From Deltaproteobacteria bacterium (lineage in GTDB: Bacteria; Desulfobacterota; JAJRXV01), in NCBI GenBank assembly GCA_024275075.1, contig JAJRZU010000070.1:17234-81233 (forward strand): a stretch of DNA of 64,000 nt, given 5' to 3'. This document shows positions 7,344 through 62,651 of this stretch, piece by piece (the stretch's first letter is position 1; every line of letters begins with the position of its first letter). Made by a program: the position numbers and the translations under genes. The notes under the pieces were generated by a model that worked only from the letters and a program-made list of their open reading frames with translations, had not been told where the DNA came from and did not search any database.

Positions 7344-8096
7344 ATGTACAGACGCCGGAAAATAATTTTTAGGATAATTTTACCGCTTATGGCGCTGGCG
7401 CTTTTTTCCACCCTTCTCACCGGCTGCCAGAGCGAAGAGGATAAGAAATTCGATGCGCTTTTGAAAAAACTGCATGACGCGGACGCGAATGACAGGGACC
7501 ATGCTGCGACAGCTCTTGGTGTCTTGAAGGATCCGCGCGCGGTCAGTTTCCTCGCGGATACGGTAATAAGGGACACAGACCCGAAAGTCCGCCTGAGCGC
7601 GGCAACGTAACTGGGCGTGATCGGTGATCCGGCCGCGATCGAGCCGCTCGCGGACGCCTTGAACGATGATGATACGCAGGTGAGGTGGTGGGCGGTCACG
7701 TCTCTTGGGATGATACAAGACCCGCGCGCAGTCAAGCCGCTCTCTGACACGCTGAAAAACGATACAGATACCAATGTAATAAATGCCGCCATCTCCGCTC
7801 TCGGGGTTCTGGGCGACCCGGGCGCGATCGAGCCGCTCACGGCAGCTTTGAAGAGCAGCGACACGAAGATAAAAAGAGGAGCGATCGCCGCTTTGGGGCA
7901 GATAGGGAAACCCGCCCTGGATATTATTATCCGCTCTCTTAACAACGAGGATACTTTTGTCAGGATCAGCGCCGCGTCCTCTCTGGAGCGGATCGGTGAC
8001 CCGCGCGCGAAGGGCCCCCTCACCAAAGCTCTTAACGATACTAACTCGAGCGTGCGGAAGATCGCGAAAAGAGCATTGGAGAAACTTGCTAAATAA
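7344..8096 (+). CDS. HEAT/PBS-lyase repeat lipoprotein, interrupted by in-frame TAA at 7608-7610 (pseudogene or read-through)
   Basis: Lipobox LLTGC. About nine HEAT repeats (xxAAxALGxxxDPRAxxPL). Track ORFs 7344-7610 and 7617-8096 are in the same frame, and the repeat register is continuous across the stop (RLSAAT*LGVIGDP). Confidence 0.6.
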
Positions 8097-9781: not shown

Positions 9782-10420
9782 ATGAAATGCCCTAAATGCG
9801 GTTTTGTCAGCTTCGACAAATTAGAAACATGTAAAAGGTGTAAGCACGTTTTTGCGATAGAAGAACCTGTGCCGAAGCACTCGTTCCTTGCTAAGATGAA
9901 GGATATTTTGAAAAAAGAGGACGAAAAGACCGTCTCGCAAAAAGAGGTTAAAGAGCAGGAACCGGAACCAGCGCCACAAGAAGTAGTGCCCGCACCGAAA
10001 GAAGAGGTATCCGCGGCGCAGGCGAAGGCGGCCGTTGCAACTGCGTCTTTAGTGGATAGTTTTGATGATAAGTTTGACGACCTCTTTGGTGAAGATAAGT
10101 ACGCGGTAAAGGAGAGCGAAAGCGACGCGATAAAATTAACGGCGGTCGACCGGTATACACAGCAGCAAACGAAGCCTGATAATACCGCGGCAAACGGTTA
10201 TAACTTTGATGATTCATTCTTTAAGGTGACCGGCACGTCAGAGGAAGAAGCTGATGAAATGCTTCAGGAAGATAATGTTGAGGAGCCGCTTGTCGAGAAA
10301 AAGGAAGAGGAAAGCGCTTTCAAAGGTGGTCAGGAATTTCACGAGGTATTGTCTGATGATGTAGATGCTGATGACGATCTTATAGATTTTGAAATAGATG
10401 ATGACGAAAAAAAAAACTAA
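9782..10420 (+). CDS. Zinc-ribbon protein (CPKCG..CKRCKH) with acidic low-complexity tail; probably the N-terminal part of a zinc-ribbon-RDD protein
   Basis: N-terminal CxxC..CxxC motif, then a Glu/Asp-rich linker. The gene ends in an A10 run (10407-10416) before TAA. Confidence 0.6.
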   Translation: MKCPKCGFVSFDKLETCKRCKHVFAIEEPVPKHSFLAKMKDILKKEDEKTVSQKEVKEQEPEPAPQEVVPAPKEEVSAAQAKAAVATASLVDSFDDKFDDLFGEDKYAVKESESDAIKLTAVDRYTQQQTKPDNTAANGYNFDDSFFKVTGTSEEEADEMLQEDNVEEPLVEKKEEESAFKGGQEFHEVLSDDVDADDDLIDFEIDDDEKKN

Positions 10421-10422
10421 AC

Positions 10423-15594: not shown

Positions 15595-18573
15595 ATGATA
15601 AATAAAATCGAAGTATCGCTAAAGCCGTTTATAAGGGACGTGCGTGGGGAATCTGTTAGAAACGGGATCTCGAACTATCTTCACGTGGACGTTCAAGATG
15701 TAAGGATAATCGATACTTATATCCTCGAAGGTGACTTCACTGACAAAGAGATCGTCAGTATCGCTTCTAACCCCCTGTTAGACCCTGTAATACAAATGTT
15801 CTCGATCAACAAACCGATAAGCGGGGACTTTGATTTCATCATCATGGTGGGGTTCCTCCCCGGCGTCACCGATAATGTCGGGAGAACCGCGAAGGAAGCT
15901 ATCGGCACCTTTCTGGGCAGGCCTTTCGCAGACGGTGAAGGCGTTTACACCGCGCAACAGTATCTCATAAAAGGGGCGCTTGATTATGATGACGCGAAAA
16001 AGATCGCCCATGACCTTTTGGCCAATGAACTCATACAAAGCTTCCAGGTAATGTCGCAGGCTGACTTTTTGCGTGAGGGCGGCTTTGTGACAACCGCACC
16101 GAAAGTCAGCATCCTGCTTGAGGCGAAGGTGGATGAGATCGACCTGAACATCCCTGACGACGAGCTTGTCAAGTTAAGCAAAGATGGTCTTTTGGCGCTC
16201 TCATTAGATGAGATGAACACGATCAAAGATCACTTCAACGATGATGAGTTCATCTCACAAAGACGAAAGGTCGGCCTGACTTCCCGCATCACCGATGTCG
16301 AGCTTGAATCACTGGCGCAGACATGGTCTGAGCACTGCAAGCATAAGATATTCAACGCTGACATAGACTATACTGATGAACTTGGTATTACCACCAGAAT
16401 CAGCAGTCTTTTTAAAACATATATCGTCAACTCGACGAAGAAGATTCGGCGAAGTAAGGGTAATAACGATTTCTGCCTCTCCGTCTTCAAGGATAACGCC
16501 GGTGTCATCTCGTTTGATGATAACCACAATATCGTACTCAAGGTTGAGACTCACAACAGCCCTTCCGCGCTTGACCCGTACGGCGGCGCCCTTACCGGTA
16601 TCGTCGGCGTCAATCGGGACCCGTTCGGCACCGGTCTCGGCGCGAGGCTGATATTCAACACCGATGTCTTTTGTTTCGCCTCGCCATTTTACGATAAGGA
16701 GCTGCCACCGAAACTGTTGCACCCGCGCAGGATATATGAGGGTGTCGTCACCGGTGTCGAGCATGGCGGTAACAAGAGCGGCATACCGACTGTCAACGGT
16801 ACGGTCGTGTTCAATGAACGGTTCCTTGGGAAACCGCTCGTCTTCTGCGGCACCGGCGGTATTATGCCGAAAACGATCAACGGCAGGCTCTCCCATGAGA
16901 AGAGAGCGAATGCCGGTGACCTCATCGTCATGACCGGCGGCAGGATCGGTAAGGACGGCATCCACGGCGCGACATTCTCCTCTGAGGAGCTACACGAAGG
17001 CTCACCGGTGACGGCAGTGCAGATAGGCGACCCGATAACGCAAAAGAAGATGACGGACTTTCTGCTCATAGCGAGGGATCTTGGGCTCTACAGCTCGATC
17101 ACAGATAACGGCGCTGGCGGGCTCTCGTCATCCGTCGGTGAGATGGCCGAAGACTGCGGCGGGTGCCGGCTTCACCTTGACAAAGCGCCCCTGAAGTACA
17201 GCGGGCTCCAGCCATGGGAGATACTCGTCTCCGAGGCGCAGGAACGGATGACGCTCGCGGTGCCCAAGGAAAACATCGAGCGGTTCATGGAGCTGGCGAA
17301 GACTATGGATACTCAGGCCACCGTTTTAGGGGAGTTCACCGACACCGGTATCTTCCACATCCTGTATGAGGATAAAACGGTCGCGTACTTAGAGATGGAG
17401 TTCCTGCATCACGGCCTGCCCCCGATGAACCTGACGGCGAAGTTTGAGACGCCGCGTCACACCGAACCTGACCTGCCCGATTAGGTAGACATAAAGGATA
17501 CTCTTCTCAAGCTGATGAGATCATTAAATATTTGCAGTAAGGAATCGATCGTGAGGCGGTATGACCACGAGGTGCAGGGCGGCAGTGTCATAAAGCCGTT
17601 TGTCGGCGCAACGAACGACGGGCCGTCAGACGCCGCTGTTTTGCGGCCTCTCCTTGAATCGTTCAAAGGGATAGTCGTCTCGAACGGGATATGCCCGGAG
17701 TACAGCGACATAGATACGTATCACATGGCGGCGTGCGCGATCGACGAGGCGGTACGAAACGCTGTCTGCGTGGGCGGCGATATCGAGCACATGGCGGGGC
17801 TTGACAACTTCTGCTGGTGCGACCCGATAAAGAGCGACAGGAACCCGGACGGCGAATACAAACTCGCGCAGCTCGTCAGGGCGAACAAAGCGCTCTACGA
17901 TTACTGCACGGCCTACGGAATACCCTGCATCTCAGGGAAAGACAGCATGAAGAACGATTACATAATGGGCAGCTTGAAGATATCGATACCACCGACCCTG
18001 CTGTATACAGTGTTTGCCACGATCGATGACGTCAGAAGAGCCGTGACGATGGATTTCAAAGCAGCGGGCGACTGCATATACATCCTGGGCATCACAAAGG
18101 ATGAGCTCGGCGGCGGCGAATACTATAACCTGCTTTGCGCTACGGGCAACACAGTACCGAAAGTCGATGCGAACGCGGCCTACCACCGCTACAAAGCGGT
18201 ACTGGCCGCGATGAAAGAAGGGATTATCCGCTCATGCCACGACGCGTCCGACGGCGGGATCGGTGTGGCTATCACCGAATCCGCATTCTCTGGCGGGTTC
18301 GGGGCAAAGATCGACCTGACAAAAGTGCCTTGCGGCGATATCACAAGGGATGATATAATACTGTTCTCAGAATCGCAAAGCCGCCTGATCGTCTCAGTCA
18401 GCCCCAAAGATGAAAAGCGGTTCAGGTAGATCATGAGCGCGGATGCCTATGCCCGGATCGGAACTGTAACAGACAAAAAAGAGCTGATAATCAAAAGATT
18501 GGACAAAAGCAACGTGACTATCGATATAGATACATTAAAAAAAGCATGGCAAAAGCCGCTAAAGGGGTTATAA
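15595..18573 (+). CDS. purL: Fused PurS-PurL phosphoribosylformylglycinamidine synthase, interrupted by two in-frame TAG codons (17482-17484, 18427-18429)
   Basis: The N-terminal ~80 aa resemble PurS (VSLKPFIRDVRGESV..VQDVRI). PurL AIR-synthase domains run in one frame across both TAGs (..EPDLPD*VDIKD..NICSKESIVRRYDHEVQG..; ..EKRFR*IMSADAYARIGTVTDK..LKKAWQKPL). True stop TAA at 18571-18573. Confidence 0.8.
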
Positions 18574-18593
18574 AAAGACTTAACCACAGAGTA

Positions 18594-18703: not shown

Positions 18704-18735
18704 AGCTATTTGTGGTTCTGAAAGAAGGTAACGAA

Positions 18736-19572
18736 ATGCCGGTAAAGACAAAGGCGGCGGTAATAACAGGTTATGGTGTCAATTGCGAGCGTGAGATGGC
18801 TCATGCCTGCGCGTTGGCCGGTTTTGATATCGTTGACATAATACATATCAGCGAGCTGTTGAGCTTTGCGAAGGATATCAACGGGTACCATTTCCTGAAC
18901 TTCGCCGGCGGCTTCTTAGACGGTGATGATCTGGGCAGCGCGAAGGCCTGCGTGAACCGGTTCAAGTACGCCGTACCTTCTGGCGGCGGTGAGAAGATAG
19001 TCGATCAGATCCAGCGGTTCATCTCGGATAAGAAGCTGATTCTGGGTATATGCAACGGTTTTCAGCTCATGGTGAAGTTCGGTATCCTGCCGGGCTTTGA
19101 CGGCAGTTACATTGACCAGTCGGCTACATTGACGTTCAACGATTCCGCGCGTTTTGAGGATAGGTGGGTCTATCTCAAGATCAACGACAGCTAGCCATGC
19201 GTCTTCACAAAGGGCGCAAAAGGAGTATACCTGCCAATCCGGCACGGTGAGGGGAAGTTCATCTCAAACGATGATGAGACCCATAATAGGATCATCAGTA
19301 ATAACCTTAACGCTATCATGTACAGTGACAGCGATTATGTCGCGACGGACGTACCGTATCCGATGAACCCGAACGGCTCGAAGGCTGGAATCGCGGGTAT
19401 CTGCGATCCAAGCGGCAGGCTTTTTGGCATGATGCCGCACCCCGAAGCCTACCTGCACTACACGAACCATCCGCGCTGGACCCGCGAGAAGATGCCCGAA
19501 GAGGGGCAGGGTCTTTTATTCTTTAAGAACGCACATAAATATGTGAAGGAGCGCCTGACCGAAAATGCATGA
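18736..19572 (+). CDS. purQ: Phosphoribosylformylglycinamidine synthase glutaminase subunit PurQ, interrupted by in-frame TAG at 19192-19194
   Basis: Class I glutamine amidotransferase ([14 protein letters not shown]). Homology continues in the same frame after the TAG (..[34 protein letters not shown]..). Confidence 0.8.
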
Positions 19573-29159: not shown

Positions 29160-29771
29160 TTACTTCATTTTTACGTCATCCATGTCCATATCTTTGTCAT
29201 CGCCATCAGGCATCATAGCCCCTGAGCCCATCATCTGTCGCATCATCTTCTTCCTGCCTTTACCCATACCCTCTTTCATCTGCATCATTTTTTGTTTCAT
29301 AAGCTGTTGCATCTTTAAAAACTGCTCATCAGTCAGAAGCTCCTTAACTTACTTGTGCGTCTTCAGGCACTCTAATTTCATCTGTACCTTAGTATCATAA
29401 AAATCCCTCAGCTTCCCCTCGATCGCATCTAAGTCCATATTGTCTTTGCTCATCAGCTCATCTAACTCAAGCTGCTTTATGTCACTTTGTGCCTTTAATG
29501 TTATCTTCTTCTTCTTGTGTTCGTAGTGAAGAGCATTGAATTTTTTTAGCTGATCATCAGAAAGGCCTAATTTTTCGGCGTTTTTTTTGCACATATCCGG
29601 GTTGTGCATACCGCTCATCATACTCATCATACCACCGGACATCATCGACTTTCCACCCATCATACCTTGTTCACCTTTGGATTCGCAGCATTTCTTGCCC
29701 GCGGCGGCATAAGTCACCGGCAGGCTGATCGCGGCGAGTAATACCGTTATTACAAATAATTTTTTTAGCAT
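29160..29771 (-). CDS. Spy/CpxP/ZraP-family periplasmic Met-rich metal-binding chaperone, interrupted by in-frame TAA at 29349-29351
   Basis: Signal peptide MLKKLFVITVLLAAISLPVTYAAAG; Met-rich stretch MMGGKSMMSGGMMSMMSGM. First LTXXQ motif (LSDDQ) lies before the TAA. A second LTXXQ (LTDEQFLKMQQLMKQKMMQM) and a Met-rich tail continue in frame after it, to TAA at 29160-29162. Lies upstream of copA on the same strand. Confidence 0.6.
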
Positions 29772-32134: not shown

Positions 32135-32170
32135 ATTTGATTGGGCGTCTGCCCTTTAAGAGAGGTCAAT

Positions 32171-33046
32171 ATGCTGTCAAGCGAGATCATAAAGAAGATT
32201 TCGTCGATTCACATAAGAACGAATTACCTTGTCAACGACATCCTGGCGGGCGAGTATGAGAGCGCGTTCCGCGGCAGGGGGATGGAGTTTGAGGAGGTGC
32301 GCGAATATACGCCCGGCGACGACGTTCGGACAATCGACTGGAACGTGACAGCCCGCACCGGTCACCCTTACGTAAAGGTGTTCACCGAGGAGCGTGAACT
32401 TACGATAATGCTCATGATCGATGTGAGTTCTTCCGGGCAGTTCGGCACTGTGAAGGAGCTGAAGAACGAGGTAGCGGCGGAAGTAGCTGCGATACTGGCA
32501 TTCTCGGCGATCAAGAACAACGATAAAGTCGGTCTCATAATCTTCAGCGAGCGGATCGAGAAGTACATCCCCCCAAAGAAGGGTCGGAGCCATGTCTGGC
32601 GCGTCATAAGGGAGATAGTGCAGTTCCGGCCAAAAAAGAGCGCAACGGACATAGGCGCTTCATTGAAGTTCTTCAACAAAGTTACAAAGAGACGTTGCGT
32701 ATGCTTCTTGATCTCGGATTTTTTGGCCGAGGATTATGAAAAGACCCTCTTTATCGCGAATAAGAAACACGATGTGATCGCCGTCACGATAACAGACCCA
32801 AGAGAGATGAAGCTGCCTAATATCGGTTTCATTGAGCTCGAGGACGCGGAGACCGGTGAGGCGATCCTCATTGATACGTACGACAAAAATATCACAAGAG
32901 GATTTGATGTCTTGACAAGGAAAAGAGCGATCGAGAGGAAAAACAGCTTCCGCTCGATGGACATCGACAGCATAGATATCGTGACAGACCGGTCGTATAT
33001 ACAACCGATCATGCGGTTTTTCAAGATGAGAGAAAAAAGGATGTAA
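32171..33046 (+). CDS. DUF58 (vWA-like) protein
   Basis: Canonical MoxR partner (..RGRGMEFEEVREYTPGDDVRTIDW..). Start moved to ATG 32171 after an AGAGG ribosome-binding site. Confidence 0.85.
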   Translation: MLSSEIIKKISSIHIRTNYLVNDILAGEYESAFRGRGMEFEEVREYTPGDDVRTIDWNVTARTGHPYVKVFTEERELTIMLMIDVSSSGQFGTVKELKNEVAAEVAAILAFSAIKNNDKVGLIIFSERIEKYIPPKKGRSHVWRVIREIVQFRPKKSATDIGASLKFFNKVTKRRCVCFLISDFLAEDYEKTLFIANKKHDVIAVTITDPREMKLPNIGFIELEDAETGEAILIDTYDKNITRGFDVLTRKRAIERKNSFRSMDIDSIDIVTDRSYIQPIMRFFKMREKRM

Positions 33047-33275
33047 TGTAGCCTGATAATATATCTTCTCTGTACTTCCCACTCCTCCCGTACTGGTGTG
33101 GGGCGCAATGGTGCGCCCCATGCCGGTACTATTAAAATGGGCGGCTGCGGGTGGAAGTATAACATTAACAGGAGGGCATAATGCCCAATAATTGTGCGCA
33201 TACTCTAAGGAAATCATGAATATCGTCATTCAAAAAAGTAACTAATTATTATAACAACTATTATGGGAGGGGTTC

Positions 33276-34514: not shown

Positions 34515-34517
34515 ATC

Positions 34518-35531
34518 ATGAGTAAAGTTCTGAAAAACAAAATATTGATTCTTGCCGCTTTATCGATGCTCATTGCATGTGGTAAAAAAGAAAGCGGCGA
34601 AGCGGCGGATACGCGAAAACTGCCGCCGGTAGTGGTCAACGCGTCCATAGACAAAGTGGAGGCGACTACCGGTGACATAATATCGTATACCGTCGAGGTG
34701 AGCTCAGAGCCAGGGCTAAAGGTATATATCCCTGAGGCCGGTGAGAAGATAGCGGGCTTTCGGATCGTTGACTGGGGCGATGAGGACCCGCGCGAGCTTA
34801 ATGACAGGATCATCGTGAAGAAGTGGTACAAGCTCCAGGCGGACATTATCGGGGGCTACATCATACCCGCGGTCAATGTAAGTTATGTTGATCGTGACAG
34901 TGGCAACGAAAAGTTTGTCTCGACCGCCGAACTGTTCGTGCGGGTAAAATCATCGATATCCGACGATGAGGAGTTCAACGATATAATCGATATCAAGCCG
35001 CTTGTCGATCTGACTACAGACTACTCAAGGGCTGTCGTCATCGCATCCGCGGCCGGCGGCGTACTGATCGCCCTGCTTTTACTGATATATATCCTAAGGC
35101 GGCGAAACAGGCAGGTGGAGATACCGGCGCTGCCACCGCATGAGACTGCGTTCAGTGAGCTTGATAAGCTGAAAAACTCCGGTCTTTTGCAAAATGGCGA
35201 CATAAAAGGTTATTACTTCGCCATGTCAGAGATTGTGAGACGCTACATGGAGGGCCGGTTCGGGTTCCCAGCGTCAGAGTGGACGACACAAGAGATACTG
35301 CCGGTCGTGACAAACGGGCTCAACCTTGATACCGTACTCAAGGAGTTGATAAGGACATTCTTGAATAACACGGATACCGTAAAGTTTACCGATACCGTAC
35401 CTGATGAGAATATGATACAGCTCGAGCTTTCAAGAGCATATAAATTTGTTGAGCAGACTATGGAAAAAGATGAAGATACGACACCAAATGATTCCCAGGC
35501 TAACGGGCAAATAAAAGAGGAAGCGGCATGA
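34518..35531 (+). CDS. BatD-like domain lipoprotein with TM helix (bat-operon hypothetical)
   Basis: Lipobox LIACG, BatD-like beta domain (VVVNASIDKVEATTGDIISYTVEV), a TM helix and a cytoplasmic domain. Occupies the position of the conserved hypothetical in bat operons. Confidence 0.55.
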   Translation: MSKVLKNKILILAALSMLIACGKKESGEAADTRKLPPVVVNASIDKVEATTGDIISYTVEVSSEPGLKVYIPEAGEKIAGFRIVDWGDEDPRELNDRIIVKKWYKLQADIIGGYIIPAVNVSYVDRDSGNEKFVSTAELFVRVKSSISDDEEFNDIIDIKPLVDLTTDYSRAVVIASAAGGVLIALLLLIYILRRRNRQVEIPALPPHETAFSELDKLKNSGLLQNGDIKGYYFAMSEIVRRYMEGRFGFPASEWTTQEILPVVTNGLNLDTVLKELIRTFLNNTDTVKFTDTVPDENMIQLELSRAYKFVEQTMEKDEDTTPNDSQANGQIKEEAA

Positions 35532-35538
35532 GGATTTT

Positions 35539-36534
35539 ATGTTAAGGTTTGAAGACCCATGGCTTTTGGCAGTGCTATTTGCCATACCGGTAATAACATA
35601 TTCATATTTTTATCTCAGCTCGTCGAGCAGGATAAGGTTCTCGACCATAGAGCTATTGAAGAAGCTGAAAACGTCAAAGAGCGTGAGAGCGCGGCATTCG
35701 CTTATCCTGCTAAGAGGCGCCGCGATACTTTTCCTGACGCTTGGCCTGGCGCGCCCGCAGCACGGCACCAAGACGACCGAGCAGCTTACCGAGGGTATCG
35801 ATATAATGCTCTGCCTTGACACTTCAGGTAGTATGCAGGCTCTTGATTTTACTATCGATGGCAGGAAGCGTGACCGGCTGGCTGTCGTGAAGGATGTCGT
35901 GAAGGATTTCGTCAAAGCCAGAGAGAATGACCGCATCGGGATGGTGGTCTTCGGTGACGAGGCGTTCACCCAGTGCCCGTTGACGCTTGACTACGGCGTT
36001 CTGCTCAGCTTCCTGGATCGTATAAGCATCGGGATGGCCGGCGACTCCACAGCAGTCGGCAGCGCCATCGCGACCAGCGTCAAGCGGCTGAAGGACGTAC
36101 CGGCAAAATCGAAGATAATCGTGCTACTCACCGACGGGCGCAGCAATGCCGGTCGTATATCACCGGAGATAGCCGCGGAGATCGCGAAAACTATGGGTAT
36201 AAAGATATACACTATCGGTGTCGGCAGCGACGGAGCCGTACCGTTTCTGGTGGACACATTCTTCGGGAAGCAATACATATACCGCCGCGTCGACCTCGAT
36301 GAGGAGAGCCTGAAGAGTATCGCGAAGGAGACTGGCGGCAAGTACTTCAGGGCGACTGACACAAAAGGGCTTAAAGAGATATATAAGACGATAGATTCAT
36401 TAGAGAAAACAGAGATCAAGGTGAAGGAGTACATGGAATATAACGAGCTGTTTGGCGGGTTCATGCTGATAGGTCTGTTTCTGCTCGTCACAGAGGTCGT
36501 CCTGGCAAATACGCGGTTCAGGAAAATACCGTAG
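35539..36534 (+). CDS. batA: vWA-domain protein BatA
   Basis: N-terminal TM helices, then a vWA domain with MIDAS (DTSGSM). Confidence 0.85.
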   Translation: MLRFEDPWLLAVLFAIPVITYSYFYLSSSSRIRFSTIELLKKLKTSKSVRARHSLILLRGAAILFLTLGLARPQHGTKTTEQLTEGIDIMLCLDTSGSMQALDFTIDGRKRDRLAVVKDVVKDFVKARENDRIGMVVFGDEAFTQCPLTLDYGVLLSFLDRISIGMAGDSTAVGSAIATSVKRLKDVPAKSKIIVLLTDGRSNAGRISPEIAAEIAKTMGIKIYTIGVGSDGAVPFLVDTFFGKQYIYRRVDLDEESLKSIAKETGGKYFRATDTKGLKEIYKTIDSLEKTEIKVKEYMEYNELFGGFMLIGLFLLVTEVVLANTRFRKIP

Positions 36535-36571
36535 CAGGGGAGGCGTGACGCCTCAATCATTATATTAGTGC

Positions 36572-36604
36572 GTAGGTTGCTGTTAAGCGAAGCGCAACGC
36601 AACG
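36572..36604 (-). repeat. 33-nt repeat, copy B (inverted relative to copy A at 18629-18661)
   Basis: The reverse complement, cgttgcgttgcgcttcgcttaacagcaacctac, differs from copy A by one substitution. Located in the batA-batB intergenic region. Confidence 0.55.
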
Positions 36605-36641
36605 ATAAACTAGTAGTTAAGAAAGTTAAAAGAGAGAAATC

Positions 36642-37649
36642 ATGAAGTTTGGCGATCTGACATACCTTTTTATGCTGTGGATAGTTCCGGTGCTGATACT
36701 GTTCTACATCTACGCGTTCAAGAAGAAAGACGAGCTGATCAAGCTGTTTTGCGAAGACGCGCTCATCGGTAAGATAATGCCCGGAGTCAGCCGCAACAGG
36801 CAGAAGCTCAAGGCGCTATTGATCGTACTCGCCGTTGTATTCATCGTCGTGGCGCTTATCCGCCCCCGCTGGGGATACCACTGGGAAGAGGTACAGCGGA
36901 TGGGTGTCGATATTGTAGTCGTAGTTGACGTCTCGACGAGTATGCTCGCGCAGGACGTAAAACCGAACCGGTTAAAGCGCGCGAAGATGGAGATCGAGGA
37001 TTTGATAAACATCCTGCAGGGCGACCGGATCGGGCTTGTCGCGTTTGCCGGTGACAGCTTCTTGCAATGCCCGCTCTCACTTGATTACTGCGCGTTCAAG
37101 ATGTTCCTGGATTATATCGATACAGACCTGATTCCCGTGAAAGGCACCGCAATCGCCGACGCTATACGAAAGGCCATTGACGCGTTCGATTCGAAGAAGC
37201 GGGAATCCAAGGCGATAATACTGATAACCGACGGCGAGGACCACTCCGGCGATCCGGTAAAAGCCGCCGAGGAAGCTAAGGCGCAGGGTATTAAGATATT
37301 CGCGATCGGTATCGGTAGCGAGGGCGGGGCGCCGATCCCCGAACCTGATGGCGGCGGTTTCAAGAAGGATAAGAATGGCGAACTTATCATGACAAGACTC
37401 GATGAGGCGACTTTGCAAAAGATCGCGCTTACCACCGGCGGGAGCTACGTGCGTTCCATTACCGGTGATATGGATCTGGAGAAGATATACATTGACGGCA
37501 TCAAGAAGGAGTTAGAGGCCAGGGAACTTAAGTCCCAAAGGCGGAAGCGTTTTGAGGAACGGTTCCAGATATTTGCCGGTATAGCCATACTGATCTTGGT
37601 TTTAGAATCTCTTATTAGTGAAAAGAAAAAGAAGGTAGAGCAGGTATGA
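36642..37649 (+). CDS. batB: vWA-domain protein BatB
   Basis: TM helices plus a vWA MIDAS motif (DVSTSM) and a C-terminal TM. Confidence 0.85.
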   Translation: MKFGDLTYLFMLWIVPVLILFYIYAFKKKDELIKLFCEDALIGKIMPGVSRNRQKLKALLIVLAVVFIVVALIRPRWGYHWEEVQRMGVDIVVVVDVSTSMLAQDVKPNRLKRAKMEIEDLINILQGDRIGLVAFAGDSFLQCPLSLDYCAFKMFLDYIDTDLIPVKGTAIADAIRKAIDAFDSKKRESKAIILITDGEDHSGDPVKAAEEAKAQGIKIFAIGIGSEGGAPIPEPDGGGFKKDKNGELIMTRLDEATLQKIALTTGGSYVRSITGDMDLEKIYIDGIKKELEARELKSQRRKRFEERFQIFAGIAILILVLESLISEKKKKVEQV

Positions 37650-38563
37650 AGAGAATAATAAGGAGTAAATCGTTTTTTAAGTTATTTTTTATTTTGCTTT
37701 TGAATATTATGTTATTGAATAATGCCTTCGCAAAGAGTATAAATAAGAGACTGGACGAAGCTGAGGAGTTTTACAAGAACGGTGACTATGACAAGGCGTT
37801 AAAGGCTTATATCGATGCCCAGTTAGAAGCTCCTGATGATGTCAATTTGAAGTACAACATCGCGAATGCTCATTATAAGATGAAAAGTTATGAGGACGCC
37901 GCCAAACTGTACTCTGATGTCACGTTAAACGCGAAGGATATCTCGCTTGTTCAGAAGTCTTACTTTAACCTTGGGAACGCTTATTACCGGCAGGGAAAAC
38001 TGCAAGAGTCAGTCGAATTATATAAAAGCGCGTTAGAGATAGACCCGAACGATGAAGAGGCGAAAAAGAACCTGGATTTTGTCAGGGAAGTCATAAAACA
38101 AATGATGAACGAGCAGAAGGATCGCGAGCAGCAGCAGAGCGGAGATGAACAGCAAAAAGAGGACGGCGAAAAGCAAGAGGGCGAAGGCGAGCAGGGTGAA
38201 AAGCAAGAGGGCGAAGGCGAGCAGGGTGAAGGCGAGGAGCAGCAGGAAGTAGCTCAAGGTGAACAGGACGAGCAGGAGAAACAAGAAGAAGGCTCATCTT
38301 CCAGGGAGCAAGAAGAAGAAGAGGGCGAGGGCTCGCCGTCAGAGGAGCAGGAAGCTAAGGAGCAGGCAGCGGCGAAAGAGAGCGAAAAGCAGGGCGAGGA
38401 TGCGCAGGCAGGCGGGCAGGCATCCGCAGGCCAGCAGATGGAGATGACGCAGGAAGAGGCAGAACGGTTATTGCAGGGCCTTGATGAGAACAGGGAAGAG
38501 TTCATGAAGAAGCAGATGCGAAAGAGTATGGGTAAAGGGTCAAGACACCGTAAGGACTGGTAA
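37646..38563 (+). CDS. batC: TPR-repeat protein BatC with acidic E/Q-rich low-complexity tail
   Basis: Signal/TM segment, three TPR repeats, then EGEGEQGEKQ repeats. Confidence 0.75.
   Translation: MKRIIRSKSFFKLFFILLLNIMLLNNAFAKSINKRLDEAEEFYKNGDYDKALKAYIDAQLEAPDDVNLKYNIANAHYKMKSYEDAAKLYSDVTLNAKDISLVQKSYFNLGNAYYRQGKLQESVELYKSALEIDPNDEEAKKNLDFVREVIKQMMNEQKDREQQQSGDEQQKEDGEKQEGEGEQGEKQEGEGEQGEGEEQQEVAQGEQDEQEKQEEGSSSREQEEEEGEGSPSEEQEAKEQAAAKESEKQGEDAQAGGQASAGQQMEMTQEEAERLLQGLDENREEFMKKQMRKSMGKGSRHRKDW
38172..38231 (+). repeat. Perfect 30-bp tandem duplication inside batC (encodes KQEGEGEQGE)
   Basis: aagcaagagggcgaaggcgagcagggtgaa occurs twice. Confidence 0.6.
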
Positions 38564-38568
38564 GTCGC

Positions 38569-40347
38569 GTGAACAAAAAAAAATCGATAATGGCGGTCAT
38601 CGCTGTTATATTCATATTTATGGCTGTTGCGGCACACGCTGATATCACTATCAGCGCCGATGTGGACAAGCGGCAGGCTTCATTGGAAGATACTTTCTAT
38701 TTGACCGTAACAGTGGGCGGAACAAGATCCACAAGCGCACCGCCGTCAGTGTCCGGCGCCGGCGCTTTTGGCATCACATACCGCGGTTCGAGCAGCAAAG
38801 TATCCATCATAAATGGTACGATGTCCTCTGCTATTGAATATAACTATGTACTCCTCCCAAAAAAAGCAGGTACGTTTCGACTCCCCCCGATCATTCTCAG
38901 GCACGACGGGGAAATATACAAGACCGCCCCGATCGAGCTGGTAGTCACGAAACCGGCGGCGGAAAATGCCGCGAAGGATATTTTTGTCACGGCGGAGATT
39001 TCGAACAGCTCGCCATACGTCAACGAGCAGGTCATATTTACTTTCAAATTTTTCACCAGTGTCCAGATAGCAAACGCTACTTATGAGAATCCCGTGTTTA
39101 AAAATTTTATTACTGAGGATTTGGGAGAAACGAGTAGCTACCAGAAAGTGATCAATGGGAAGCAGTACACGGTAAACGAGGTAAAATATGCTTTGTTCCC
39201 GCTGAAAGCCGGTGAATATCCTATCGCACCGCTCAAAGGTAAGGCGGACGCCGTTTACCGAAGTAAGCGGCGCGGGCGTAACAGTAGCATCTTTGACAAT
39301 CCGTTTTTTGGCGGGTATGCTGAGACAAAGCCCGTCTACTTCCAGACAAATGAGCTCAAGCTAAACGTGAGTCCGTTACCTGAATACACTAACAAAGAGG
39401 TGCCGTTCTCTAACCTGATCGGTGAGTTCAAGATTACCGCATCACTTGGTACGAGGTCGCTTGATGTAGGGGATTCCACAACGCTGACCGTAACGGTGCA
39501 CGGATACGGTAACATCACGGACGCCGCGTTCCCAAAGCTGTCCGAGCTGAAGAATTTAAAGACGTACGACGACAAACCGGTGGAGGATATAAAAGCGACT
39601 AAGGGCGGGATATACGGGTCTAAGACGTTTAAGAAGGCGTTTATCCCGTTAAAAGAGGGTAAACAAAAGCTTCCGGTGATAAAATTCTCGTATTTTGATA
39701 CAAAAAAGCGTGATTATGTGGTCTTATCGACACCTGAATATACGCTTGATGTGAGCCCGTCTTCAGTGCAGGAGAACATGAACCTTGTCGAGATGGTCGG
39801 CAGGACGACCACCAAGGAAGCGGTAAAAGTCATCGGTATGGATATATTACCGATCAAGGCATCGATAAATTCGCTTAATAATGAGGAGTTCAGGCTATTC
39901 TCCATTGTGAATGTATTGATAGCGTTGATGCCCGGTTTACTTTACATGGTCTTCATGTTTTACGCCAGGCAAAAAGAGATGCACCTGGCGGACGCGAACA
40001 TCCTGCGAAGAAAAAAAGCATACAAGAAATTTACGCAGGCGACGGGTAATTTAAACAAGCTGATAAAAAATGATTCCACTGAATTTTATGGTATGCTATT
40101 AAACTCGTTAAAGAATTATATCGGTGATAAATTAAATTCCGTCGGCAGCGCCATGACACCAAAGGAAGTTGCAGCCGCCCTGGCTAAGAACAACATCCCG
40201 CAGGATGTTATTCGTAAGGTGGCAGATGCGATGGAGAGATTAGAACGGGCGCAATTTGCGTCTGTAAAGCTTTTGGCGGCAGACAAGAAGCAATTGGTAA
40301 AAGTTTTGTCCTTCGCGGCAAAAACGATTGAGAGACGGGTTAAATAA
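38569..40347 (+). CDS. batD: BatD (oxygen-tolerance protein), full length
   Basis: 592 aa. Signal peptide, BatD beta domains, a TM helix and a C-terminal cytoplasmic helical domain. Confidence 0.8.
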   Translation: MNKKKSIMAVIAVIFIFMAVAAHADITISADVDKRQASLEDTFYLTVTVGGTRSTSAPPSVSGAGAFGITYRGSSSKVSIINGTMSSAIEYNYVLLPKKAGTFRLPPIILRHDGEIYKTAPIELVVTKPAAENAAKDIFVTAEISNSSPYVNEQVIFTFKFFTSVQIANATYENPVFKNFITEDLGETSSYQKVINGKQYTVNEVKYALFPLKAGEYPIAPLKGKADAVYRSKRRGRNSSIFDNPFFGGYAETKPVYFQTNELKLNVSPLPEYTNKEVPFSNLIGEFKITASLGTRSLDVGDSTTLTVTVHGYGNITDAAFPKLSELKNLKTYDDKPVEDIKATKGGIYGSKTFKKAFIPLKEGKQKLPVIKFSYFDTKKRDYVVLSTPEYTLDVSPSSVQENMNLVEMVGRTTTKEAVKVIGMDILPIKASINSLNNEEFRLFSIVNVLIALMPGLLYMVFMFYARQKEMHLADANILRRKKAYKKFTQATGNLNKLIKNDSTEFYGMLLNSLKNYIGDKLNSVGSAMTPKEVAAALAKNNIPQDVIRKVADAMERLERAQFASVKLLAADKKQLVKVLSFAAKTIERRVK

Positions 40348-40348
40348 C

Positions 40349-41089
40349 ATGAGAAGAGTGATATTCACAGCAATTGCCTTTTTCCTCCTTAGCCTGACAA
40401 GCGCTTTCGCTTCTGGCGTATCTGTATCAAAGAGCTTTATCAAGGCTAACGAAGCTTATGAGACCGGTGACTACGCACAGGCTACCGAACTGTATGAAGC
40501 GATTGTACAGGAAGTAAAAAGCGGCGCGTTATATTACAATCTTGGCAACAGTTACTTCAAAGAAGGTAAGATCGGTTACGCACTGGCAAATTACCTGCGT
40601 GCGAAACGATACATACCAAACGACAGCGACCTCAACGACAATATCCGCTACCTTCAGACATTTACGAAAGATACTATTGAGAACAAGAACCTGTTTTGCC
40701 ATCTTTACAAGATATTCTTCTTTTGCAACATATTCAGCACAAAGCTGTTCTTTTACATCTTCACCTTTTTTAACGCGGCCTTCTTCTTGCTGCTCATCAT
40801 TAAAAAGGGATCCCTTAACTGGTTAAGAAATCTCACCTTCATTCTACTTATCCTGTCAGCGATAGCGCTTGCTTTAAATTATAACAGGTACTATAATGAT
40901 AAAAACGGCGTGATAATCAAAAGTGAGGTCTCTGTGAAGTCCGGCAGCTCGCTGAACGACACGACGCTTTTTAACCTGCATGAGGGCACAGTACTCAGAG
41001 TAATCGGTGAGAGCGGCGATTGGTTAAAGATCCGGCTTCTTGATAACAAGAAGGGCTGGGTGCTAAGAAAAGTCGTGGAACCGGTATAA
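40349..41089 (+). CDS. batE: BatE (TPR + TM + SH3b-like)
   Basis: Signal peptide, TPR, hydrophobic segments and a C-terminal SH3b-like region (GTVLRVIGESGDWLKIRL). Start moved to ATG 40349. Confidence 0.7.
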   Translation: MRRVIFTAIAFFLLSLTSAFASGVSVSKSFIKANEAYETGDYAQATELYEAIVQEVKSGALYYNLGNSYFKEGKIGYALANYLRAKRYIPNDSDLNDNIRYLQTFTKDTIENKNLFCHLYKIFFFCNIFSTKLFFYIFTFFNAAFFLLLIIKKGSLNWLRNLTFILLILSAIALALNYNRYYNDKNGVIIKSEVSVKSGSSLNDTTLFNLHEGTVLRVIGESGDWLKIRLLDNKKGWVLRKVVEPV

Positions 41090-42590: not shown

Positions 42591-43043
42591 CTAAATTTTA
42601 CGCCGCAAAGCTCTTTGAAGCTCCCTGTCCGAGTCCTTTTTCTTTATCGCTTCCCGCTTGTCGTAAAACTTCTTACCCTTGGCAAGCGCTATCTCAAGCT
42701 TACACCTGCCCCGCTTGAAATAGAGCCGAAGCGGAACTAATGTCAGACCCTTCTCCTGTACCTTGCCGATAAGTTTCTTTATCTGAGCTTTATGCAGTAA
42801 AAGCTTACGGGTACGGCGCGGCTCATGGTTGAACCGGTTCGCAAAAGCGTACGGGCTGATGTGCATATTATAAATATACACCTCGCCATTATCTATCCTG
42901 CCAAAAGATTCTTTCAGGTTCGCTTTGCCCTGCCGGAGCGACTTCACCTCCGAACCCTTCAGGACAACACCCGCCTCAAAAGTCTCTATGATAAAATATT
43001 CATATCGCGCCTTCTTGTTCTGCGCTATTAACTTTTAACTCAT
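42591..43043 (-). CDS. smpB: SsrA-binding protein SmpB, with in-frame TAA at codon 3 (43035-43037)
   Basis: Reads [65 protein letters not shown]. The start resembles B. subtilis SmpB; the only ATG is two codons before the TAA. The track ORF starts at an internal Met. Confidence 0.75.
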
Positions 43044-43045
43044 CT

Positions 43046-43495
43046 CTAACCGATTATCTGGACTACCTTTGGTATGTATCGTGTATCCTTGTCTATCTTC
43101 CTGCTGACAGACTTTACGAAGAATATGCTCAAAACAAGGAATATCAATGCCGTCAACGCCGAGAGCGAATCCTTTGTCATGCTTTCACCGATGTACGGGT
43201 GAAGCGCACCGCCGATTATGCCGCCGGCGACAAGCGATATCACCGGTACCATGTACACCAGAAATGTCGCCTTTAGAAACGACTTCTCAGGAACCTCTAT
43301 CTTTACGGTATCGCCATCCTTCGCGCCAGCTGTGTTTAAGGCGCGGACTACCGCGTAGTCGCCGCCTTCACCCATCCCGCACATCTCCTTGGAAGAACAA
43401 TGATCGCACGCGCCTGTACGCTCCGTCTGCACTAACGCGTACTCACCCTCTATGCCCTGAACAACACCGACCTCTTGTATCATCATCACCTCCAC
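43046..43495 (-). CDS. rseC: RseC/MucC family positive regulator of sigma-E-like Fe-S membrane protein
   Basis: Cys-containing N-terminal domain (GACDHCSS..C) plus two TM helices. Downstream of cooS on the same strand. Confidence 0.7.
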   Translation of the reverse strand: MEVMMIQEVGVVQGIEGEYALVQTERTGACDHCSSKEMCGMGEGGDYAVVRALNTAGAKDGDTVKIEVPEKSFLKATFLVYMVPVISLVAGGIIGGALHPYIGESMTKDSLSALTALIFLVLSIFFVKSVSRKIDKDTRYIPKVVQIIG

Positions 43496-43671: not shown

Positions 43672-45546
43672 TTATATCCCTAATGCGGCTCTCTTTTTAT
43701 TTATATGGTCTTCGATTCCGTTCACTATCTCCACAGGGTCTTCCCCCACCGCTACTTTACCACCGGTGATACCCTCGATGCCGCTGGTCAACAGCGCGAC
43801 GAGCTCTGGTGCGCCCGTGACAGGCGGAGTCGGTGATACGTGCGTGTAGAGCCCGAACGCTACCGCAAAGAACGCGTCGATAACCGCTTTCTGCTCAAGA
43901 TACTCTGGTGCTGTCACCGCAACGGGCAGCTGCGACGGATCCACCCCGAGCGCGTCCGCGATGGCGGTCACGAGGTTCGCTATCCGACCGGTATCCGAAC
44001 ATGTACCGAAACTTAGCACCGGTGGGATGTTCAGCGCCTTGCAAAGCCCTTTCAGCTTCTCGCCGGCAATGTCAGCCGCCTCTAACGTAGTCAGACCGCC
44101 CACCTGCAAAGCGGCGTTACCGCAACCGGCGCTTAGCACCAGTATATCGCGCTTGATCAGCTCCTTCGCGACGGCAATCGAGAGCGCGTCCTGCGGGCCG
44201 TTCTTCAGCGTCGTACAGCTTATCAACGCCGTGACGCCTTTTATGGTGCCGTTTTTGATAGCGTCTAAAAGCGGTGTAAGGCTCCCGCCCAACACATCCA
44301 GAATCGCCTCGGCGGAACAGCCGGAGATTATCTGCTTCTTATGCTCAGATGGTGAGGATGGCTTGTCCTTGCGGTTCTCAAAATTACTGATCGCGATATC
44401 TATCAGCTCAAGAGCGATACTCTTCGCGTCTTCGGGCAGATAGTTCAACCGCTTGTCAACGCCTTGCAGCGCGACGAGCTTTGACACCGGTACTATTGTC
44501 GCGTTGTACTTTTCGGCGTATTCGCTCAGCGTCGGTATCGTACAGTTCATATCAGCCGCGAAAACGTCAACGGTACCGGTCGCCAGAACAAACTCCTCGT
44601 TGAGCCAGTTACCGGTCAGGCCGACGAAAACGTCATCGCATTCGAAGCGCTGGATCAGCTCCTGACCGGTCTCGATAGAACCGACAACGTGTATCCCCTT
44701 CGCGCCCGCCGCGACGGCTTTCCCGTTCAGCCCCGGGTCGTCCTTTATCACCTTTATCAGCGCCGCCCCGACGAACGGTTCATGACCGTTCACAACGATA
44801 TTGACGTAATCCTTCTCAAGTATCCCGATATCAACGTTTGTCTTGTGCGGCTTTGGTGTACCAAAAAGTATGTCGTGGCACATCTCGATCGGTACGAGCG
44901 CTCCGTACGTGGACGCTATCCCCAGCCTGAGCGCTTTGAGCGCGAGCGATACATAATCACCGTCAACGTTGGTCATAGCTGATGTAGACGCGCTCATGAT
45001 CTCGTGCAGCGGGCCGCCGGGGAAGATACCAAGCTTTCTCCAGAGCTCCTTCCTGCTCTTCGGCGCGAACGCGTTGACCATCGTTGACTCTGTGTCACCG
45101 TCAAGGTTTATCTGGGCAATAATGAAGTCGGCGACATCGCCCGCTATCTTATTGGTATCGCCGTCCGTGTTTATACCAAGCTTTTCGGCGAACCCCTTGA
45201 GTTTTCCCGGTTCTTTTACCGCAAACACATCGCTGCCGTTCGCCGCCGCCTTAAGCGTTTTCGCGCTCTCGACCGCGTGAAAAGAATAGGCGGCGATACC
45301 CATTATATTCCTGTGCAGCATATTCCTCATCGCCATAGTGTTCGCGTCGACACCACATGCCCCCCTTGACGCTTTCGCGGTCAGACGGCATGGCCCCATC
45401 GAACATAACTGACAGCTCACCCCGTCAGAGCAGAACTTGCATCTTATGCCCTGAGCGTCAAACCTTTCGACGACAGAACTCATACCGTCAGCCTTTACCT
45501 TCTCGTGCATCTGTACCACACTTTCATGTGCGCTTACTTTTTCCAT
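43672..45546 (-). CDS. cooS: Anaerobic Ni-dependent carbon monoxide dehydrogenase catalytic subunit CooS
   Basis: N-terminal CKFCSDGVSCQLCSMGPCRL aligns with the CooS B/D-cluster motif CGFGETGLCCRHCLQGPCRI. Prismane/HCP fold; 624 aa. Confidence 0.9.
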   Translation of the reverse strand: MEKVSAHESVVQMHEKVKADGMSSVVERFDAQGIRCKFCSDGVSCQLCSMGPCRLTAKASRGACGVDANTMAMRNMLHRNIMGIAAYSFHAVESAKTLKAAANGSDVFAVKEPGKLKGFAEKLGINTDGDTNKIAGDVADFIIAQINLDGDTESTMVNAFAPKSRKELWRKLGIFPGGPLHEIMSASTSAMTNVDGDYVSLALKALRLGIASTYGALVPIEMCHDILFGTPKPHKTNVDIGILEKDYVNIVVNGHEPFVGAALIKVIKDDPGLNGKAVAAGAKGIHVVGSIETGQELIQRFECDDVFVGLTGNWLNEEFVLATGTVDVFAADMNCTIPTLSEYAEKYNATIVPVSKLVALQGVDKRLNYLPEDAKSIALELIDIAISNFENRKDKPSSPSEHKKQIISGCSAEAILDVLGGSLTPLLDAIKNGTIKGVTALISCTTLKNGPQDALSIAVAKELIKRDILVLSAGCGNAALQVGGLTTLEAADIAGEKLKGLCKALNIPPVLSFGTCSDTGRIANLVTAIADALGVDPSQLPVAVTAPEYLEQKAVIDAFFAVAFGLYTHVSPTPPVTGAPELVALLTSGIEGITGGKVAVGEDPVEIVNGIEDHINKKRAALGI

Positions 45547-57923: not shown

Positions 57924-59111
57924 ATGAAACAACGAGTAATAAAACACTATTTTATTCTGGCTGTTATTCTTGGGTTGGCATCAAGTGCCTTCGCTAAAAC
58001 ATGCTATGAGTGCCACAAAGATGAGAAAAAGAGCTTTAAAAAGAAGTTTGTACACAGCCCTGTATAAGATGAGAGCTGTGATGATTGTCACAATGAGCAT
58101 GAAGAAGGGAAGCCTAAAAAGCTGTCGCTGGTAGCAAAAGATAATGACTTATGCGTAGATTGCCACGACGACATCGCCGACAAAAAACACATTCACAGCG
58201 CGATAGCCGACGGCCTTTGTATAGACTGCCATGACCCTCATGCCTCTGACAATAAGAACCGGCTGATCGCTTCAGGTAACGATCTGTGCTTTGAGTGCCA
58301 CGACGATATCGCGGACAAAAAACATGTCCACAGCGCGATAGCCGACGGGGATTGTATCGACTGCCACAGCCCGCACTCGACGGATAACGCGAAGCAGCTG
58401 ATCGCTTCAGGTAACGATCTGTGCTTTGAGTGCCACGACGATATCGCGGACAAAAAACATGTCCACAGCGCGATAGCCGACGGGGATTGTATCGACTGCC
58501 ACAGCCCGCACTCGACAGATAACGCGAAGCAGCTGATCGCTTCAGGTAACGATCTGTGCTATGAGTGCCACGACAGCAAGGAGGAACAGCGTCATGTTCA
58601 CCCTGCAATTACCGACGGGGAGTGTATCGACTGCCACAGTCCGCACTCTACGGAGAATCAGTTCCAGCTCATAGCTAACTACACTTTAAAACGATATGTT
58701 GCATTTTCACCAGAAGAGTATGCTTTATGCTTTGAGTGCCACGAGGAGTCATTAATTACGACAGAATTCGTAGTCAATAATGAGACTAACTTTAGAGATG
58801 GCGCAAAAAACCTTCATTTTATACACGTCAGAGGTAAGACAGTTGTCGATAAGTATGGCTTGAAGAGAAAGCCCAAAAAAGGCAGGGCATGTTTTGGTTG
58901 CCACATGAGTCATCAATCTGACCAGAACTTCATGCTTCTAAATGAACTTACCGCTGGTAAAATATTAGTTTATTCGCTGACATATACGCAAATAAAGACG
59001 GATGAACAAGATGGCGGCAGGTGCGTTGTCGGTTGCCACAATCCAAGGCAGTATGACCGCGGCAAGAAAGAAGAGAGGGTAGAAGAAATATCCAGTGCAC
59101 CGGCTCCGTAG
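57924..59111 (+). CDS. Multiheme c-type cytochrome (~13 CxxCH), interrupted by in-frame TAA at 58065-58067
   Basis: Signal peptide MKQRVIKHYFILAVILGLASSAFA, then CYECH..VHSPV*DESCDDCH..; about 13 CxxCH motifs in one frame to TAG at 59109-59111. Largely missing from the ORF track because the segment after the TAA has no in-frame start codon. Confidence 0.75.
58262..58537 (+). repeat. 138-bp tandem duplication (x2, one silent difference) encoding a di-heme module
   Basis: The unit encodes LIASGNDLCFECHDDIADKKHVHSAIADGDCIDCHSPHSTDNAKQ and is flanked by diverged copies. This coding repeat explains the spurious antisense ORF 58114-58608. Confidence 0.7.
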
Positions 59112-61004: not shown

Positions 61005-62651
61005 ATGCTCGAAAAACTTATCTTTGGTCTGATCGGTGGACTCGGGATGTTCTTGTTTGGTATGAAGATTATGTCCGAAGGTTTGCAGAAGATCTCTGGT
61101 GACAGGATCAGAAGAACATTAGAGGCATTGACAACTAACAGGATAATGGGCTTACTCGTCGGGCTGGTTGTCACATCGATCATTCAAAGTAGCAGCGCTA
61201 CTACCGTTATGGTAGTCGGGTTCGTCAACGCCGGTCTGATGACGCTTGCTCAATCGATCGGGGTCATTTTAGGCGCGAATATCGGTACCACCATCACTGC
61301 CCAGATGATCGCATTCAAAGTGCACCATTACGCCCTGCCAATCTTAGGTATCGGTGTTTTCCTCAAGACATTTTCATCAAGTAAGCGATGGACATACATC
61401 GGGGAGGCAATGTTAGGTTTCGGGCTCATCTTTTATGGACTCGTTGTCATGAAAGGAGCTTTTGCGCCGCTAAAGACAAATCAGGCATTCATCAGTTATT
61501 TCACTCTATTCGGTGATAATCCCATTATAGGGGTATTGGTTGGGGCGGCATTGACTCTTGTCGTTCAGAGTAGCAGCGCGACAATCGGTATCACCATGAC
61601 GCTCGCTTCCTCTGGCCTGCTCAGCTTTTATGCCGCTGTTGCGCTCATTCTCGGAGAAAATATCGGTACTACGATCACCGCGAATCTGGCAAGCATCGGT
61701 ACTAATACGAACGCGAAGAGGGCGGCGAGGGCGCACCTGCTCTTTAATCTTATCGGTACCTTATACATGCTGATGATCCTGCCGTATTTCGTAACTTTTA
61801 TTGATTATATCACACCAAACAGCGCAGACTTTGTAAACGCGATTAATGAAAAACCCTTTATCGGCAGGCATATCGCTAACGCGCATTCATTGTTTAACGT
61901 ACTGAACGTACTCATATTTCTGCCATTTACCGGTTACTTAGCAAAAGCCGCTTCATTTATGGTGCCGCAAAAAGAGGGTGAGGAGGTAGAGTACGCGCTA
62001 AAATATCTGGATAACAAATTATTAAACACACCGGTCATCGCGATAAGTGAGGCGCGTAAATAAGTCGTGCGTATGGCGGAGATATCTCTTTCCATGTATA
62101 ATAATTCCATTGAATTCATTATGAATAATGATATGAAATTATTAAAGAAAATAACGAAAAAAGAGGGGATTGTCGATCTGCTGCAAAAAGATATTACAAA
62201 TTTCTTAGTGGAGATTTCACAGCAATCGATAACAAAGGATATCTCTAAAGAGATCGCGTCCTTACTTCACATGGTAAATGATTTAGAACGGATAGGCGAT
62301 CATTGCGAGAATCTCGCGAAACTGACTGAAAAGATAATCGATGGCAAGATAAAGATATCTGAAGGCGCGCTTGAAGAATTAAAGGATATTTCAGGCATTA
62401 CAAGGGAATTCATAGAGAGTACGGTAAAGGTTATCGGTGCGAAGAACAAGAAGTTCTTGCAAAACGCGCGCTACTTTGAGTCCCGTATCGATAAATTAGA
62501 GGATAATTATCGGGAGAACCACATAAAGCGGCTGAACGAGGGGCGGTGCAAAGTCACTGCCGGTCTGATCTATGTTGATATGCTCGCCAATTTCGAGAAG
62601 CTTGGCGACCATACATACAACATCGCGGAGGCTATCGCCGGTATCAAATAA
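61005..62651 (+). CDS. Na+/phosphate cotransporter (NptA family) fused to PhoU-like domains, interrupted by in-frame TAA at 62061-62063
   Basis: Na_Pi_cotrans repeats (QSSSATTVMVVGFVNAG.., QSSSATIGITMTLASSG..). After ..ISEARK*, same-frame PhoU-like helices follow (track ORF 62067-62651). This matches the usual single-polypeptide NptA-PhoU architecture. Confidence 0.75.

Follow-up and report, generated by a model that had tools for sequence, protein, structure and literature searches.

The smpB gene in the window, by which we mean the whole 64-kb stretch of DNA that was analysed, carries an in-frame TAA as its third codon, and this stop would best be explained as a single-codon nonsense substitution in an otherwise normal and recently functional gene, one of at least eight on the contig. 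Single in-frame TAA or TAG codons were found at no fewer than eight places in seven of approximately 47 genes of the window, smpB included, and these genes are otherwise intact and conserved. On balance, we lean towards the interpretation that the eight stops arose, free of selection, as base substitutions in the deposited consensus, whether through error, damage or the inclusion of minor alleles. The initial annotation of this DNA had treated the stop as a striking feature tied to the role of SmpB as the partner of tmRNA, a connection that was not sustained, since the orthologues lack the stop and at least seven more stops lie in unrelated genes.

The 5' end of smpB reads ATG AGT TAA AAG TTA ATA GCG CAG AAC AAG AAG GCG CGA TAT GAA TAT TTT on the minus strand, and the frame runs on past the TAA to a C-terminal RRKI and its stop codon (Table 1). 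The post-TAA sequence matches the SmpB profiles TIGR00086 (206 bits against a curated cut-off of 119.1, covering positions 2-143 of 144) and NF003843 (221.5 bits against a cut-off of 130), and 120 SmpB homologues were found at 60-76% identity. Judged by homology, this part of the gene is unambiguously SmpB (SsrA-binding protein; TIGR00086 / NF003843 / PF01668). An SmpB gene is expected to keep an uninterrupted frame from the start codon through the basic C-terminal tail; the tail is present here, and the frame is broken by TAA at codon 3. A decaying pseudogene would be expected to show several lesions and lost constraint, whereas smpB has one lesion followed by 147 codons that are intact and conserved.

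What had been read from the bare sequence held up well: TAA is the third codon, after ATG and AGT, and no ATG, GTG or TTG lies between it and the conserved block, the next canonical in-frame start being the GTG at codon 33. It was also correctly reasoned that, with the sequence as written, full-length SmpB would depend on read-through or on a non-canonical start. Should the TAA be genuine, the cell could produce very little SmpB, and a start at the GTG would drop the first 32 residues, including the conserved N-terminal block. The same stop is present in the public record, since the NCBI-derived gene call for the 82.8-kb contig (P0002) is the 118-aa shortened product. Neither a second smpB nor a tmRNA, tRNA or Rfam match was found within the 64-kb window. 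The smpB ATG has no Shine-Dalgarno motif, and for this reason translation of the gene is probably coupled to that of rseC.

Table 1. Positions in the window of the smpB start region, its upstream neighbour, the other in-frame stops and the probable indel.
Feature	Coordinates	Strand	Basis or remark
smpB reading frame, 150 codons and TAG stop, interrupted at codon 3	42591..43043	-	Translation; SmpB HMMs above cut-off
smpB ancestral ATG start, 2 nt past the rseC stop	43041..43043	-	Aligned with the ATG of three orthologous loci
smpB codon 2, AGT	43038..43040	-	Sequence
In-frame TAA, smpB codon 3	43035..43037	-	Sequence and translation
smpB codon 6, ATA, sole near-cognate start candidate 3' of the TAA	43026..43028	-	Sequence
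First canonical in-frame start, GTG, smpB codon 33	42945..42947	-	Yields a 118-aa ORF, 42591..42947
rseC/mucC-family gene directly upstream of smpB	43046..43495	-	PF04246, 1-129 of 130; synteny in L001 and L003
TAA in HEAT-repeat lipoprotein gene (7344-8096), codon 89 of 251	7608..7610	+	HEAT_PBS repeat (model 1-27 of 27) and HEAT_2 match span the stop
TAG in purL (15595-18573), codon 630 of 993	17482..17484	+	Homology alignments
Second TAG in purL, codon 945	18427..18429	+	Homologue column Ala 43, Glu 22, Lys 15
TAG in purQ (18736-19572), codon 153 of 279	19192..19194	+	Single alignment to Salmonella PurL spans the stop
Probable TAA in Spy/CpxP-like periplasmic gene (29160-29777), codon 143 of 206	29349..29351	-	Frame open for 62 codons further
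TAA in multihaem cytochrome gene (57924-59111), codon 48 of 396	58065..58067	+	Cytochrome_C7 and NrfB-like matches span the stop
TAA in Na/Pi cotransporter-PhoU gene (61005-62651), codon 353 of 549	62061..62063	+	Glu in 119/119 homologues
A10 run, probable one-base indel splitting the zinc-ribbon-RDD gene (9782-10902)	10407..10416	+	RDD ORF without a start for 51 codons

The comparison with relatives indicates what the third codon should be. The three closest SmpB proteins (P0001, P0003 and P0004, with 76, 74 and 69% identity, respectively) begin with MSIK(L/I)(I/V)AQNKKARF, and their start regions, ATG AGY AT[A/T] AAA, align codon for codon with the ATG AGT TAA AAG of the window. Because of this alignment, the ATG at 43043 is, on comparative grounds, the ancestral smpB start, and the TAA occupies a sense position. 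Codon 3 is ATA or ATT (Ile) in the three syntenic orthologues, and the corresponding column in 117 homologues holds only sense residues (Ile in 52, Val in 19 and Glu in 18). The alignment to SmpB orthologues, which the initial annotation had proposed as a check, spoke against a meaningful stop, being free of it in the three syntenic orthologues and revealing no conserved alternative start.

The relatives also share the gene order of the window, where their contigs reach, with rseC followed by smpB, a protein of ~462 aa with PKD/beta-propeller features and the Bat operon. The Bat/MoxR-type operon of the window (31157-41089; MoxR AAA, DUF58, BatA/VWA, VWA, TPR, BatD and TPR-SH3) adjoins the propeller protein, smpB and rseC, and this neighbourhood is kept in the relatives' contigs L001 and L003. 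Directly upstream of rseC-smpB, on the same strand, lies a Prismane/CO-dehydrogenase family gene (43672-45546, minus strand; PF03063, 486 bits). The same species was sought in genome contigs with the SmpB protein, which returned nothing above 63% identity, and in metagenome contigs with the degenerate pattern K[LIV][IV]AQNKKAR[FY]EYFI, which returned distant SmpBs only.

A design specific to smpB would treat ATG AGT TAA as a leader and would rely on re-initiation at the ATA of codon 6, or on programmed read-through, for a regulated low level of expression. Such a design could draw on the position of the ATA, three codons past the stop, on the capacity of AUA to initiate at approximately 0.02-3% of the AUG level in E. 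coli (bioRxiv 10.1101/063800), and on the delivery of the rseC-terminating ribosome 2 nt upstream of the ATG. However, the ATA has no Shine-Dalgarno motif, the orthologues have neither the stop nor ATA at codon 6 (where they carry ATT, GTC or ATC), and the occurrence of the same type of lesion at seven unrelated places demands no gene-specific logic. A genuine non-AUG start would be expected to recur as a near-cognate codon in orthologues, which begin at ATG instead. Similarly, programmed read-through should leave the stop conserved in orthologues and set in a stimulatory context, whereas ATA or ATT stands there in three orthologues, sense residues are found in 117 homologues, and inspection revealed no flanking motif, either a methylation site or a read-through signal, shared by the eight sites. 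We therefore consider a purpose-built smpB mechanism highly improbable, and nothing suggests that the TAA is part of a designed one.

Two further candidate signals of recoding around the stops were discarded. A frameshift past the smpB TAA would not help, since the conserved residues are encoded in the frame of the ATG and stops soon follow in both of the shifted frames. The bases following the eight stops (A, G, C, G, A, C, G, G) are as expected for first codon positions, and the richness of this +4 base in G and C when compared to true stops is expected anyway from first codon positions and AT-rich spacers. Known precedents, such as the AUU start of infC and the +1 frameshift at an in-frame UGA of prfB, share with smpB an apparent 5'-end defect in a translation-factor gene, but in these genes the unusual feature is conserved in orthologues and accompanied by defined stimulatory sequences, while the smpB TAA is unique to this contig.

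The other interrupted genes follow the same pattern as smpB. In the Na/Pi cotransporter-PhoU gene, the 119 homologues are without exception fusion proteins of ~548-563 aa, the relatives' codon at the stop position is GAA or GAG, and the public gene call P0399 (352 aa) ends at the TAA. At the first purL site, Pro is present in 95 of 119 homologues and the closest relative (L092) has TCA Ser, whereas at the purQ site the column holds Ser in 88 of 150 homologues and the codon of the closest relative is TCC (Ser). Single alignments to solved PurL structures cross the purL-purQ stops, and the public gene call P0122 (304 aa) corresponds exactly to the segment between the two purL TAGs. Together with P0002, three public gene calls of the 82.8-kb contig begin or end at these stops. 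The purL-purQ unit of 4 kb holds three of the eight in-frame stops, all of them TAG and clustered within 1.7 kb. As in smpB, the damage to purL, purQ and the Na/Pi gene consists of stops only and the remaining codons are conserved, unlike what is expected of decaying pseudogenes.

In the HEAT-repeat lipoprotein, the stop takes a position occupied by Ala or Ser in sister repeats of the same protein, and across the HEAT and cytochrome repeats the residues at the stop positions are Ala, Ser or Thr. The multihaem cytochrome gene has its signal peptide and first CxxCH before the TAA and the remaining protein after it. The Spy/CpxP-like gene is a probable case, with a second LTxxQ-type motif in the open frame past the TAA and weak Pfam support. 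Besides these substitutions, a zinc-ribbon ORF (212 aa) overlaps an RDD-domain ORF at an A10 run, and the addition of one A at this run fuses the two frames and raises the RDD match from 38 to 54 bits (model 2-135 of 137). A homopolymer indel is the probable cause, with a slippage site as another possibility.

Some features of these loci deserve mention on their own account. The FGAM synthase encoded here consists of a ~992-aa PurS-PurL-type gene and a separate purQ (15595-19572), and purC, purF, purH and a purM-like gene close to them are intact. The ENA scaffold L092, the closest purL-purQ relative, contains Ns within purL, which is the reason why its PurL is called as a 372-aa fragment, an interruption not due to an in-frame stop; many PurL homologues in the protein collection are fragments of 390-660 aa, some of them on contigs of 90-200 kb. 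The multihaem cytochrome gene contains six paired-CXXCH units, with three tandem 135-nt units at 75-100% identity (repeats 58127-58666).

The density of these lesions sets the window apart from its relatives. A flank-scoring scan detected six in-frame stops in the window, a number that homology checks raised to eight, and the same scan detected none over 56 kb of the relatives' contigs, so that the in-frame stop of smpB cannot be attributed to chance. An excess of internal stops over relatives, mostly without indels, is what an artefact in the sequence would produce, and this is the pattern found here, with eight stops in 64 kb and one probable indel. Approximately 40 other genes in the window showed full-length domain coverage. 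Additionally, homopolymers of 7-9 bases are in frame, indicating that the contig is not a raw or crude long-read consensus.

All eight stops could also be accounted for if the organism tolerated in-frame UAA and UAG by means of an efficient ochre-type suppressor tRNA or weakened termination, with the eight codons being translated. Under such efficient ochre-type suppression or context-dependent termination, read-through would yield SmpB, PurL, PurQ and the remaining products. It is consistent with this account that the in-frame stops are only TAA and TAG and never TGA, that the interrupted genes are otherwise under visible constraint, and that eight stops accompanied by one indel and no visible excess of missense changes are hard to obtain by random change; moreover, there is no tRNA gene in the window, which leaves room for a suppressor outside it. 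The absence of TGA was set aside as a signal, since TGA represents 11-16% of nonsense paths given the codon usage, and the probability of finding none in eight is 0.26-0.40. Nonetheless, 36 of 45 gene ends are TAA or TAG (22 TAA, 14 TAG and 9 TGA), although a reassigned codon should no longer end genes, and gene lengths match those of the relatives (PurH has 520 aa and MlaF 248 aa in both). Back-up stops are not enriched after TAA or TAG ends, with a median of 8-9 codons to the next stop compared to 10 in control frames, and relatives at 70-80% identity have none of the in-frame stops. Translation of these codons by suppression is therefore quite improbable in our view.

The residues that the stops replace argue in the same direction. 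Reassignment should place one amino acid at the conserved columns, yet these hold Glu (119/119), Ser (88/150), Pro (95/119) and Ile (52/117), so that no single amino acid would fit. Nonsense suppression and reassignment, as known from the ochre suppressor tRNAs of E. coli and from genetic codes 4, 25 and 15, do share with the window the presence of in-frame stops inside conserved genes. In reassigned codes, however, the codon stops terminating genes and aligns with one amino acid, while here TAA and TAG end 80% of the genes and their in-frame occurrences correspond to Glu, Ser, Pro, Ala and Ile. Furthermore, our literature search found no bacterial reassignment of UAA, and the known bacterial reassignments that it returned concern UGA. 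Pyrrolysine and selenocysteine were discarded as well, considering that TAA is involved, that TAG ends 14 genes and that the genes are not methyltransferases, and so was RNA editing of UAA or UAG, as the aligned residues (Glu, Ser, Pro and Ile) are unlike Trp or Gln. It is hardly probable, then, that the window comes from a free-living bacterium, kin to Thermodesulfobacteriota-like metagenome lineages, that uses TAA and TAG as main terminators and yet tolerates them scattered in frame.

Genuine nonsense mutations, fixed or frequent in the sequenced population, for example in a lineage with a G:C to T:A mutator defect or under relaxed selection, or as alleles drawn from a heterogeneous population, would explain the stops without any change in decoding. 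In this case smpB would be a fresh null or near-null allele, and trans-translation would be lost or reduced to a trace through near-cognate read-through or AUA initiation. Since de Bruijn assemblers emit only k-mers seen in reads, the alleles are probably present in some molecules, and the contig is long (82.8 kb) and clean of indels. The concentration of three of the eight stops in the purL-purQ unit is as expected once function has already been lost, and smpB and most of the struck genes are dispensable in many bacteria. Against these points, each gene carries its stop or stops only, without frameshifts and with its conserved columns kept, although neutral decay giving three stops in 4 kb should also give indels and radical missense changes. 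One nonsense change per 8 kb implies hundreds of broken genes, which is hard to reconcile with a viable free-living cell, and the MutL encoded in the window is intact. An ordinary young ochre or amber pseudogene resembles smpB in the conversion of one sense codon into TAA, in a gene otherwise unchanged and in an ORF that restarts at an internal GTG; gene-by-gene pseudogenisation, in contrast, does not look like eight events in 64 kb without indels or decay. Taken together, these observations make real mutations an unlikely source of the stops, albeit one that deserves to be weighed seriously.

Unselected substitutions in the deposited consensus remain the interpretation that we favour. The stops strike variable as well as conserved positions, at close to the background rate, and replace different amino acids, which indicates that they were not filtered by selection. 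We infer from the evidence above that the lesions are artefacts and that most cells do not carry them. Their source would most likely lie in the deposited consensus, through miscalled bases, oxidation of or damage to the template, or the incorporation of low-frequency alleles, and an imperfect consensus is also indicated by the likely homopolymer indel at the A10 run. The living organism would then produce full-length SmpB from the ATG at 43043, the third codon being a sense codon, for which GAA (Glu) or one of the Leu/Ile type is plausible, and with a normal codon there neither read-through nor unusual initiation would be needed. The most likely outcome of a closer look at codon 3 is a sequence correction that restores a sense codon.

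The type of base change involved is compatible with oxidative damage. A single G:C to T:A change (GAR or TCR to TAR) suffices for each of the eight stops, and the two sites that are determined best (GAA to TAA and TCN to TAG) belong to this class, while the ancestral codons of the other six are only inferred. Changes from G to T or from C to A are characteristic of oxidised guanine, whether it arises in cells or during library preparation (Costello et al., 2013; PMC3616734). The 8-oxoG artefacts described in that work resemble the stops reported here in that each of the latter can be derived by one such change; they differ in being normally of low frequency in reads, so that they would reach a consensus only with very low depth or if minor alleles were selected.

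Assembly errors of a more general kind have also been associated with internal stops. It has been demonstrated that the excess of pseudogenes with internal stops in public bacterial assemblies largely reflects base errors (Cooley and Wright, BMC Genomics 2024; PMC11017572), that low-quality reads raise the number of internal stops and not of frameshifts, with MEGAHIT giving the highest number, and that the count of internal stops tracks base miscalls and overall assembly accuracy (PMC11017572). The window shares the main traits of this pattern, namely single internal stops, intact conserved genes, few or no frameshifts and clean close relatives. The density differs: eight stops in 64 kb correspond to ~125 per Mb, when compared to roughly 1 per Mb modelled for low-coverage isolate assemblies (PMC11017572), and such a value is very high for ordinary assembly error and weighs against an artefact.

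The number of other substitutions that should accompany the stops was also considered. Nonsense changes represent 3.8% of all single-base paths in these genes and 7.9% of the G:C to T:A paths, and at such a nonsense share of 4-8% eight stops imply some 100-200 substitutions over 64 kb. In PurL and the Na/Pi transporter, missense changes at conserved columns were no more deviant than in equally divergent relatives, a comparison of little power in which only ~2 extra changes are expected.

Under the artefact reading, approximately one nonsense substitution per 8 kb would be present in the contig, and probably throughout the assembly, and the main lesson concerns data quality. In that case, shortened gene calls (the 118-aa SmpB, the 304-aa piece of PurL and the 352-aa transporter) have already entered public protein collections, and apparent recoding in this genome should be discounted pending a check of the reads. 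Conversely, stops that were real and also translated would make this the first bacterium known to decode UAA and UAG ambiguously, with relevance to the evolution of the genetic code, but the evidence points the other way.

Neighbouring genes in the same frame were also considered as read-through candidates and rejected, since the pairs MlaF/MlaD, PurC/MCP, SurA-like/BatD-like, ScpA/ScpB, OppD/OppF and LysW-like/NlpC consist of separate complete genes. All the same-frame junctions ending in TGA, and several of those ending in TAA or TAG, are true boundaries between separate genes. The LysW-like member of the last pair is a 50-aa zinc-ribbon ORF (23926-24078; PF21344, 52 bits) located just upstream of the NlpC/P60 gene, with no lysine or arginine biosynthesis genes adjoining it in the window. 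Finally, a lipoprotein encoded at 55875-57695 (minus strand) combines four MopE-type metal-binding repeats, visible as DNA repeats of ~195 nt, with a right-handed beta-helix that follows them, and its gene precedes, in the same frame, the oppD/oppF-like ATPase genes that lie downstream.
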